A stretch of DNA of 64,000 bases from an uncultured Gemmatimonadales bacterium. Lineage in GTDB: Bacteria; Gemmatimonadota; Gemmatimonadetes; Longimicrobiales; RSA9. How positions within the stretch are numbered: the first letter of the stretch is position 1; the number at the start of each line of letters is the position of its first letter. The position numbers and the translations under genes were made by a program. The notes beneath the pieces are model-generated. The model was given only the letters and a program-made list of their open reading frames with translations. It was not told the DNA's origin and did not search any database. Where the stretch lies: the NCBI GenBank assembly GCA_963741945.1, contig CAVUKA010000005.1, forward strand, positions 96,001 through 160,000. Reading direction: 5' to 3'. Shown piece by piece: positions 16,897 to 18,000 of the stretch.

Positions 16897-16930
16897 AGAA
16901 AAACCCGCACCGTAAGTCACGGTGCGGGTT
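16897..16930 (-). terminator. intrinsic terminator after tRNA-Arg(CCG)
   Basis: AACCCGCACCG-7 nt loop-CGGTGCGGGTT hairpin running into a T tract on the minus strand. Confidence 0.85.
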
Positions 16931-16943
16931 CAACTTGGAACAG

Positions 16944-17017
16944 TGCGCCCGACAGGATTCGAACCTGTGACCTCATGCTCCGGAGGCATGCGCTCTATCC
17001 AACTGAGCTACGGGCGC
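16944..17017 (-). tRNA. tRNA-Arg(CCG)
   Basis: GCGCCCG/CGGGCGC acceptor stem, anticodon arm CATGC-CTCCGGA-GCATG, GGTTCGAATCC T-loop; CCA not encoded. Confidence 0.97.
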
Positions 17018-17375
17018 AGAAACGCGTGGAACCACAACCTGCCGTCCACCCGCCTGCATGTCCACCCTGCGGCAAAGTGTCGTCGCGCGAAGCGTGGCGA
17101 CAACTGAGCTACGGGCGCAGAAACGCGTGGAACCACAACCTGCCGTCCACCCGCCTGCATGTCCACCCTGCGGCAAAGTGTCGTCGCGCGAAGCGTGGCG
17201 ACAACTGAGCTACGGGCGCAGAAACGCGTGGAACCACAACCTGCCGTCCACCCGCCTGCACGTCCACCCTGCGGCAAAGTGTCGTCGCGCGAAGCGTAAC
17301 GACAACTGAGCTACGGGCGCAGAAACGCGTGGAACCACAACCTGCCGTCCACCCGCCTGCACGTCGACGCTGCGG
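17000..17375. repeat. 101-bp tandem repeat (3 full units + partial), each containing the tRNA-Arg(CCG) leader and nt 1-18
   Basis: Units start at 17000, 17101, 17202 and 17303 with caactgagctacgggcgcagaaacgcgtgg; units 1 and 2 are identical, unit 3 has 3 substitutions. Confidence 0.97.
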
Positions 17376-17394
17376 GCCCTCTGTTTCTGGCAGC

Positions 17395-17781
17395 GGGGAA
17401 GCGGAATAAGCCGAGTTCTGTCTCCGGCGAACCGGAGGCGAGCCATTTCTCTGGGACGGCGGTCGCCCGCCGCCTCGAGCAGCCTACCCGGGACTCTCAC
17501 GACGAATCGCGTCGGCGCGGGCCGCGCCATCATCCCTGCTTGGCCTTGCTCCGGGTGGGGTTTACCATGCGACGACTGTTGCCAGCCGCCCGGTGGTCTC
17601 TTGCACCACCCTTTCACCCTTGCCTGTGCCGGCGCCTTTCGGCTCCGGCCATCGGCGGTCTGCTCTCTGTGGCACTTTCCAGCGCCTCGCGGCGTCCGGG
17701 CGTTACCCGGCACCCTGCCCTGCGGAGCTCGGACTTTCCTCGACCGTCTCACGGACGGCCGCGGCTCGCACTCGCTTCCCT
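17395..17781 (-). ncRNA. rnpB: RNase P RNA, class A
   Basis: GAGGAAAGTCCGAGC, GAAAGTGCCACAGA, AGGGTGAAAGGGTGG, GGTAAACCCCACCCGGAGCAAG and ACAGAACTCGGCTTA motifs; P1 GGGAAGCG/CGCTTCCC. Confidence 0.96.
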
Positions 17782-17823
17782 CTGCTGTCAAACAGCACGG
17801 CCCCCGCTGCGGGGGGCCGGCAA

Positions 17824-17897
<74 letters not shown>

Positions 17898-17971
17898 AAT
17901 CCGGAGAAAGAACCGCCCGCGGTTCGCCATGCGCCCCGCGGGGTCGATTGCCCTCCCCGATCAGCCTCGGA

Positions 17972-18000
17972 ATTCTAGTGCCGGCGCCCCGGCCTGTCAA
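17972..18000 (-). promoter_or_regulatory. sigma70 promoter of the tRNA-rnpB-tRNA operon
   Basis: TTGACA (18000-17995), 17-bp spacer, TAGAAT (17977-17972). Confidence 0.85.

Follow-up and report, generated by a model that had tools for sequence, protein, structure and literature searches.

A tandem array between rnpB and tRNA-Arg(CCG) is an amplified locus of a hairpin-element family found at tRNA genes of Longimicrobiales-type Gemmatimonadota

A tandem array of tRNA starts behind rnpB

We analyzed a 64,000-nucleotide stretch of DNA (hereafter the window; contig CAVUKA010000005.1 of assembly GCA_963741945.1, positions 96,001 to 160,000) from an uncultured Gemmatimonadales bacterium. On its minus strand, tRNA-Arg(ACG), the RNase P RNA gene rnpB and tRNA-Arg(CCG) follow one another, and a tandem array lies between the last two. 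The source genome (G000) is metagenome-derived, consists of 8 contigs, is 96.7% complete and has 57 tRNA predictions; a second species of the same genus (G001) was used for comparison. In the window, tRNA and non-coding RNA genes were placed with ARAGORN and Rfam. Tandem Repeats Finder (TRF) reported a single array, at 17000-17375, with a period of 101, 3.7 copies, 98% matches, no indels and a score of 710. Copies of the tRNA start ("heads", GCGCCCGTAGCTCAGTT on the minus strand) begin at 17320, 17219 and 17118, and the genuine tRNA-Arg(CCG) begins at 17017. Each unit is composed of nt 1-17(-18) of tRNA-Arg(CCG), a conserved 24-nt hairpin and a tail of ~60 nt that forms the leader for the next head, so that the insert between one head and the next is 84 nt. 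The hairpin begins exactly where the D-loop would continue (...GCUCAGUU, then GG), and the three full units differ pairwise by 0-3 bases. The original prediction, made from the letters of the window, described the head as exactly nt 1-18 of the tRNA. This holds for G000, where the hairpin happens to begin with G and identity therefore reaches nt 18, but not for relatives, in which identity ends at nt 17.

Four sequencing runs (X1, X2, X3 and X9) were compared with the array, all in the form of contigs. In DNA run X1, the error-free unitig depth was 16.4 over the core shared by the units (17060-17159), 9.2 over a two-copy variant (17130-17190) and 5.5 over a one-copy variant (17235-17291), compared with 5.63 in the unique flank (17336-17560). 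These values correspond to 3, 2 and 1 copies, respectively, and fit an array of about three copies. X1 may be the assembly's own source sample, in which case the depth tests the assembler and is not independent biology. We regard as the independent support the arrangement in G001, which is of the same kind, with 4 extra heads and a period of 101. In runs X2, X3 and X9, there was no cover or scattered cover only inside the array, and the shares of up to 0.2 were conserved tRNA and rnpB parts from other organisms. TRF confirms the 3.7 copies of a 101-bp unit that had been claimed, the heads lie where they had been placed, and the contigs give no sign of an assembly artefact. It might be argued that the assembler collapsed or expanded the repeat, as the genome is metagenome-derived and in 8 contigs, and no single contig placed on the array spans it. 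However, with depths that match whole copy numbers and an independent congeneric genome showing the same period, such an artefact is scarcely credible.

The same hairpin recurs at other tRNA genes

A BLAST search with the array against its own genome detected a second site, where three tandem units of 61 bp lie between tRNA-Glu(CTC) and tRNA-Val(CAC). G071 and G072 have two units at this site, the distal one being degenerate yet hairpin-forming. In G000, six near-exact copies of the hairpin core were found at 2 loci, with none further at fewer than 4 mismatches, and a third locus has one extra head 5' of tRNA-Gly(CCC). When the 57 tRNA predictions of this genome were compared with the 400 nt upstream of each, a non-tRNA copy of the gene's first 16 nt was present for Arg(CCG) and Gly(CCC) alone.

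A covariance model (CM R1) built from nine copies matched in 13 of the 73 genomes of the family, with seven matches in G000 that were all 5' of tRNA genes. Inspection of 16 new matches placed 11 directly 5' of a tRNA gene and 2 within a miniature inverted-repeat transposable element (MITE), while 3 were weak and had no tRNA nearby. A broader covariance model detected the element in 6 of 50 sampled genomes of the family and in none of 50 + 50 genomes of two sister families of the order. Verified elements, including that of G021, are present in 10 genomes of 5 genera and are located at tRNA-Arg(CCG), Val(CAC), Gly(CCC), Gly(GCC) and Ala(UGC). Element sequences were also matched in public metagenome-assembled genomes (MAGs) labelled Longimicrobiales, Longimicrobiaceae, Gemmatimonadales or Gemmatimonadaceae. 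Within tRNA operons the element always has the sense orientation. Three unrelated hairpin families (CTCGCCACGC..., CTGTGAACG... and CTTCGCAC...) share one layout, and each of them occurs at tRNAs with different acceptor stems. The array behind rnpB is one amplified locus of a lineage-restricted hairpin-element family of Longimicrobiales-type Gemmatimonadota.

This family in duplicated tRNA starts is apparently undescribed. Rfam 15 gave no match in 17018-17390 at E ≤ 10, and at five other loci it detected nothing but tRNAs and rnpB. A literature search turned up no description of repeats made of a tRNA 5' head and a hairpin, as far as titles and the beginnings of abstracts tell. A phage origin was rejected, the hairpin pattern having 0 matches in viral contigs. 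Four scans with exact patterns added little: one had 0 matches; in another the pattern was no commoner than its reversed control, with 3 of 7 matches outside G000 being real; in a third, 1 of 80 retrieved loci adjoined tRNAs; and in the fourth, 3 of 35 loci were real.

The hairpin is maintained by compensatory changes

Covariation was assessed on a 20-row alignment of the hairpin with 500 shuffles. Eight of the 13 pairs have changed on both sides. Paired cells amounted to 88.3% compared with 79.9% in shuffles, none of the 500 shuffles reached the observed percentage or the covariation score, and slid registers left 26-56% of the cells paired. The register TGTCG.../...CGACA accommodates two differences between G000 and G001, namely a G-C to C-G exchange and an A.C to A-U change. 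The hairpin that had been predicted beside the head is thus real, but its register is three bases off the proposed GTTGTCGC/GCGACGAC pairing, and the exchange in G001 is compensatory in the former register only. The CC>TT change in unit 3 preserves the stem, as had been proposed, with C.A becoming U-A and C-G becoming U.G. It had also been suggested that the unit as a whole be folded. The folding of whole units did not surpass that of shuffles (z = -0.24 and +0.38), and z was -2.48 for the compact element of G073. The hairpin is under selection, which may act on propagation of the element or on an RNA role in the precursor. Within tRNA operons, it may represent a new structured motif of RNA or DNA.

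Decay of heads, retention of hairpins and turnover of sites

The 17 nt preceding the hairpin are identical to nt 1-17 of the next tRNA (17/17) for Arg in G000, G001 and G072, for Gly-CCC in G065 and G000 and for Gly-GCC in G001, and the Ala head in G019 has 16/17 identities. Measured from the junction, nt 17 of the tRNA itself lies 97-102 nt away in these head-type copies (79 nt for Ala). Elsewhere, the heads have decayed to 2-12/17 identities. For example, the g5 copies at Gly-GCC have heads of 2-12/17 with an intact hairpin and a distance of 100-102 nt. Other distances with a decayed head are 58-60 nt (Arg in G073 and G005; Val in G000, G071 and G072), 84 nt (Arg in G068) and 107 nt (Val in G065). 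Sites also differ between close relatives. At Gly-CCC the element is intact in G000 and shortened and decayed in G001. At Gly-GCC, G001 has an element in a spacer of 158 nt, and G000 has a plain spacer of 46 nt. The Glu-Val spacer of G021 has a hairpin family other than that of G000, together with an intact Val head.

The boundaries of the duplicated segment are sharp at several loci. Identity between copies ends at tRNA +1 in G072 (18-nt run) and at the first head of G001 (17-nt run), and the upstream head in G072 keeps the native short rnpB-proximal leader. A comparison of the filled locus of G072 with empty loci looks like a clean gain of ~102 nt with a direct repeat of 17-18 nt. At several loci, 30-63 nt of leader are shared along with the head. 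Across loci the junction always follows ...AGTT, and the 17-nt head repeat is also present. We considered the 3' end of the upstream tRNA as the left end of the duplication; it fits Gly-CCC of G000 but not Gly-GCC of G001, and this idea was dropped. Units differ by 0-4 bases within a species versus 15-16 of 101 between species, whose rnpB genes are 92.7% identical; the units evolve in concert. The tRNA-Val element is ~95% identical over ~60 nt between genera with rnpB regions that are 75-80% identical.

The Tyr-Val(GAC) spacer of G001 (L191, reverse complement, 2240-2330) is 91 nt long and has three GGGACGCG-like repeats resembling the start of tRNA-Val(GAC); the corresponding spacer in G000 is 6 nt.

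Organization of the rnpB operon

The features of the locus are listed in Table 1. At the position equivalent to the promoter, G001 has TTGACA-17-TACAAT. No promoter-like or terminator-like site was found in the interval between rnpB and tRNA-Arg(CCG). Neighbors of the array include genes for an ECF sigma factor and a Ser/Thr kinase, and no integrase or recombinase is among them. The spacer between tRNA-Arg(ACG) and rnpB has an 8-bp all-GC hairpin with a weak T tract (17798-17819, minus strand), which is kept in G001 and may be a partial terminator or a processing hairpin.

Table 1. Features of the rnpB-tRNA-Arg(CCG) locus and of the related array elsewhere in the genome
Feature	Position	Strand	Evidence or details
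Sigma-70-like promoter TTGACA-17-TAGAAT, 5' of tRNA-Arg(ACG); probable operon start	17972..18000	-	11/12 matches; 1 site vs 0.2 expected
tRNA-Arg(ACG)	17823..17898	-	ARAGORN, Rfam
rnpB, RNase P RNA, bacterial class A	17391..17781	-	Rfam, 259.7 bits, model positions 1-367
Partial first unit: tail/leader only, without head or hairpin	17321..17375	-	Sequence, TRF
Unit 3 (distal)	17220..17320	-	Head 17320-17304, hairpin 17303-17280 (CC>TT variant), tail 17279-17220
Unit 2	17119..17219	-	Head 17219-17203, hairpin 17202-17179, tail 17178-17119
Unit 1 (proximal)	17018..17118	-	Head 17118-17102, hairpin 17101-17078, tail 17077-17018 (real tRNA leader); CM R1, 84.4 bits
Intact tRNA-Arg(CCG), sole gene with CCG anticodon in the genome	16943..17017	-	ARAGORN, Rfam
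Intrinsic-terminator-like hairpin; probable operon end	16901..16931	-	Sequence scan; 14 pairs + T run
Glu-Val array, outside the window	G000:C5:395603-395793 (L035)		Three 61-bp units; 21-nt hairpin core in common with the rnpB array

The cluster tRNA-Arg(ACG)-rnpB-tRNA-Arg(CCG), located at 16943-18000 (minus strand) in the window, is present across the family, and its last two genes occur together across the order. The upstream position of the cluster is taken by tRNA-Leu(AAG) in one sister family. In 21 of 30 loci, the distance from the 3' motif of P4 in rnpB to the start of tRNA-Arg(CCG) is 15-26 nt, that is, the tRNA starts ~5-15 nt past the rnpB 3' end (4 of these 21 loci are from the unpublished genomes G016, G017, G020 and G026; 17 of 26 without them). 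Longer spacers occur in G000 (389 nt), G001 (496 nt), G005 (120 nt) and a few others. A comparison of this spacer in relatives had been proposed as a check on the array: G001 shares the array, and 21 of the 30 loci have a short spacer. Because rnpB and tRNA-Arg(CCG) are only a few bases apart throughout the family, anything joined to the start of this tRNA comes to sit behind rnpB, and the conserved operon is thus the reason why the array is found there. A gap of ~5-15 nt would mean that RNase P, by cleaving the leader of the downstream tRNA, comes close to fixing where its own RNA subunit ends. In run X9, a contig from the RNA library of a relative contains the 3' end of rnpB linked through 96 other letters to tRNA-Arg(CCG), which is compatible with co-transcription of the two genes but is no proof of it.

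Origin of the array

The original prediction focused on RNase P: the repeated junctions of leader and head would serve the enzyme as substrates or decoys, tying its activity to rnpB and tRNA maturation, or would be a source of ~101-nt small RNAs. It is true that the junction occurs four times with identical leaders of at least 45 nt, probably in one transcript with rnpB, that the X9 contig joins the two genes in a relative, and that both species of the genus have kept the array. However, an acceptor-like helix of CGCCCG with CGGGTG in the next leader, which would close a "mini-tRNA" and is persuasive by eye at several loci, failed the control with swapped heads (own versus swapped, 5.03 vs 5.08 for 6-mers and 5.65 vs 5.64 for 7-mers), so that no partner strand is present above chance. 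Whole units fold like shuffles, heads decay in relatives, and most relatives lack a spacer element altogether. Moreover, the same layout of head and hairpin is found at tRNA genes far from rnpB and unrelated to it. Since one hairpin element sits behind duplicated tRNA starts at several tRNA genes, the array is probably not an RNase P device. The RNase P-centred interpretation is most likely wrong, and we consider its substrate, decoy and small-RNA versions very unlikely. Neutral slippage, which had been listed as a further option, was rightly counted among the candidates.

The explanation that we favor, although we give it only about an even chance, is that a small insertion element with a hairpin at its start integrates into tRNA genes behind nt 17, duplicates the 5' head and is then amplified by unequal crossing-over or re-insertion. 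It rests on the gain of ~102 nt in G072, on the recurrence of hairpin-plus-tail modules with a local head, on the turnover of sites and on an insertion in a MITE. The homologous modules occur at tRNAs with different acceptor stems and always carry the local head. In G059, two copies of the MITE (L172 and L184), a non-tRNA site, are broken up by an insertion of 70 nt that has a hairpin of the same family at its start. This MITE is ~290-360 bp long with 25-bp terminal inverted repeats, and dozens of whole or partial copies are present in genus g11 (also in G011: L213 and L216).

In such a scheme, a non-autonomous palindromic element would be inserted or copied into the D-loop position of a tRNA gene, after ...GCTCAGTT, duplicating the 5' head and leaving an intact tRNA gene downstream. 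The direct head repeats would then permit unequal crossing-over, or re-insertion into the regenerated ...CAGTT target, and by either route the array would be perfectly periodic and its units would evolve in concert. Transcription would probably run from the promoter upstream of tRNA-Arg(ACG) through the array and end at the terminator that follows tRNA-Arg(CCG), and the array would probably be discarded in processing. As the extra heads have no partner strand, they would be poor RNase P substrates; for this reason, and as they decay over time, we regard them as likely by-products.

Several observations weigh against an insertion element. No enzyme could be linked to it among the RVT_1, Y1/RAYT and GIY-YIG domains searched in G000. 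RVT_1 had no matches in this 96.7% complete genome, and the sole GIY-YIG match lies within a 626-aa frame, with no small free-standing nuclease found. The copy number is low, as the 7 model matches in G000 are unlike typical mobile repeats. The ~95% identity of the tRNA-Val element across genera is as compatible with a functional RNA under purifying selection as it is with mobility. Where 30-63 nt of leader are shared along with the head, plain tandem duplication is possible, and transcription and processing of the array are steps that we infer. We know of no transposition mechanism that makes a 17-nt duplication beginning at the mature 5' end of a tRNA. Insertion as outlined above explains neither the mature +1 as the starting point of the duplication in several independent events nor the periods, which group around 100 nt or, in subfamilies, around 77 and 59 nt. 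In scans of the sequence collection (see below), 10 of the 17 head bases and the period range of 74-104 were fixed by the pattern, which limits what the recurrence of this layout can tell.

A RAYT link was also examined and rejected. The single Y1 gene of G000 has its own, unrelated 26-nt inverted repeats, and model R2 found nothing there (best 10.4 bits). This RAYT-like gene (G000:C1:754734-755838, L218) encodes 324 aa and scored 26.9 bits with Y1_Tnp and 72.1 bits with NF047646, below the cut-off of 80. Its 26-nt inverted repeat is present at the gene and at five other places in G000, in 12 genomic copies that are mostly arranged as inverted pairs ~110-150 nt apart, like a small MITE or REPIN family.

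Two other explanations start from ordinary inheritance or duplication. The hairpin with its ACUUCGC flank might be a vertically inherited functional element of tRNA-operon spacers, such as a processing or stability signal or a processed spacer RNA, with head copies and arrays arising as side effects of recombination with the adjacent tRNA gene. The covariation, the retention of the hairpin even in degenerate distal units, the constant sense orientation within tRNA operons and a tRNA-Val element that is nearly unchanged in three genera while the rest of the spacer is unalignable would all be accommodated. However, three unrelated hairpin families hold the same position, sister genera have different families in the same spacer, 60 of the 73 family genomes have no match, and no Rfam family was matched; the 21 of 30 rnpB-tRNA loci with 15-26 nt from the P4 motif to the tRNA offer no counterpart of the element, and recombination over 17 nt does not explain a constant junction after nt 17. 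We therefore consider a functional spacer hairpin unlikely. Still less can be said for units that are decayed tandem duplicates of a whole tRNA gene with its spacer (~75 + 25 nt, ~100 nt), of which the head alone is recognizable. Periods do cluster at 95-102 nt at many loci, long leaders are shared at several, and one Pacebacteria locus (L256) resembles a decayed tRNA copy. However, a decayed tRNA body could not be recognized within the unit: when inserts of 6 loci were compared with tRNA nt 18-75, 86-396 of 500 shuffles scored at least as high. Heads of 17/17 beside unrelated sequence would require non-uniform decay, and homologous hairpins occur at different tRNA species, which makes this origin highly improbable.

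A bolder form of the insertion-element explanation is quite unlikely. Here, the elements would be an undescribed class of mobile hairpins that target tRNA genes at D-loop position 17/18, and an RNA or DNA end set by tRNA processing would be the template from which nt 1-17 are copied to restore the gene. The copying might occur by repair or template jumping on mature tRNA, or by rolling-circle read-through from an element abutting +1 that terminates at ...CAGUU, its own target. Such a class would account for several independent duplications that begin at the mature 5' end, for the same layout arising from unrelated hairpins (including those of an Actinomycetes MAG and Saccharibacteria described below), and for the perfect arrays.

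If a hairpin-led insertion element is indeed responsible, tiny hairpin elements strike the tRNA genes of this lineage time and again at a single precise position, and the genes survive through duplicated 5' ends. This would be a mutational or mobile process that the titles and abstract beginnings searched do not describe, and its arrays could pass for regulatory devices. For annotation, it would mean that tRNA-like starts upstream of tRNA genes are scars or elements and not genes. The sharp boundaries at tRNA +1 and nt 17 may serve as a handle on the mechanism.

Similar layouts in other organisms and comparison with known repeats

To look beyond the family, one genome per species was searched for two heads in succession, the first with CT and the second with GG behind it, at a period of 74-104; in such scans, the seven acceptor bases and the leader are the only free evidence. 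This yielded 18 loci. Six were real tRNA-Ile/Ala pairs, one was an archaeal (Pacearchaeota) partial-tRNA-like sequence and one was the decayed-tRNA-like sequence of Pacebacteria. Seven were Gemmatimonadota elements, including a third hairpin family at tRNA-Val(GAC) and three tRNA-Gly(GCC) genes of one MAG. Of the remaining loci, one was found in an Actinomycetes MAG (tRNA-Phe, period 100, identity ending at +1) and two in Saccharibacteria (tRNA-Thr). The Actinomycetes hairpin is unrelated, with an 11-bp stem, and the same genome has a second, compensated copy of it at the end of a gene in another place. Three further loci came from a metagenome scan, two of them with duplications of exactly 17-18 nt. 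In 12 head-plus-insert loci, the seven acceptor bases were matched in all but Saccharibacteria L258 (4/7).

Repeats 3' of rnpB have been reported in E. coli. In the tyrT-tyrV array of strain K-12 we found 178 bp x 3.1 copies with 95% matches, reaching 19 nt into the tyrV 3' end, in agreement with the earlier statement that tyrT-linked repeats copy the 3' end of the upstream RNA. The E. coli tRNA-linked repeats (rttR/tpr region) resemble the array described here in that head-to-tail units adjoin a stable-RNA gene and each contains a terminal piece of that gene. However, they lie downstream and copy the 3' end of the upstream tRNA, whereas here the 5' 17 nt of the downstream tRNA are copied. The conserved, co-varying hairpin and the recurrence of the module at other tRNA genes are seen here only, and the likeness is one of layout.

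GTAG-tagged repetitive extragenic palindromes (REPs) are small palindromes of 20-40 bp kept by compensatory change in intergenic, transcribed regions (Di Nocera et al. 2013, PMC3733652). The 24-nt co-varying hairpin shares with REPs and REPINs the character of a small palindrome. It differs in having 7 copies that are all 5' of tRNA genes, with no intergenic spread at high copy and no inverted dimers. It also differs from REP/RAYT systems, as the RAYT-like gene of G000 is flanked by an unrelated 26-nt repeat and not by the tRNA-head hairpin. GGTAGTT, with GGTAG two bases ahead of the hairpin, is present in Val and some Arg copies, and the only GTAG of head-type copies is tRNA nt 7-10.

The attL/attR duplications that phage and integrative-element integrases leave behind likewise consist of direct repeats of part of a tRNA that flank foreign sequence and leave the tRNA intact. 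Here, however, the insert is 60-85 nt without a gene, the 5' and not the 3' part is duplicated, the junction is always in the D-loop after nt 17, and no integrase is nearby. Elements of the IS200/IS605 type (PATE) insert 3' of a fixed short target by means of a subterminal hairpin and without target duplication. The junction after ...AGTT is similar, but a 17-nt head is repeated here, and this would count as no duplication in the PATE sense only if the head belongs to the moving unit.

Other tRNA genes of G000

A cluster of 19 tRNA genes is located at G000:C1:1189526-1191883. None of them encodes CCA, and a T follows every one inspected, which covers all listed but the terminal Pro gene; this pattern would fit 3' maturation by RNase Z and CCA addition. 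In addition, ARAGORN gave several predictions of 91-101 nt with odd starts, for example tRNA-Arg(acg) at C1:1139126 and tRNA-Thr(ggt) at C1:1163709, C5:363416 and C6:36589, which are probably false positives in GC-rich DNA.

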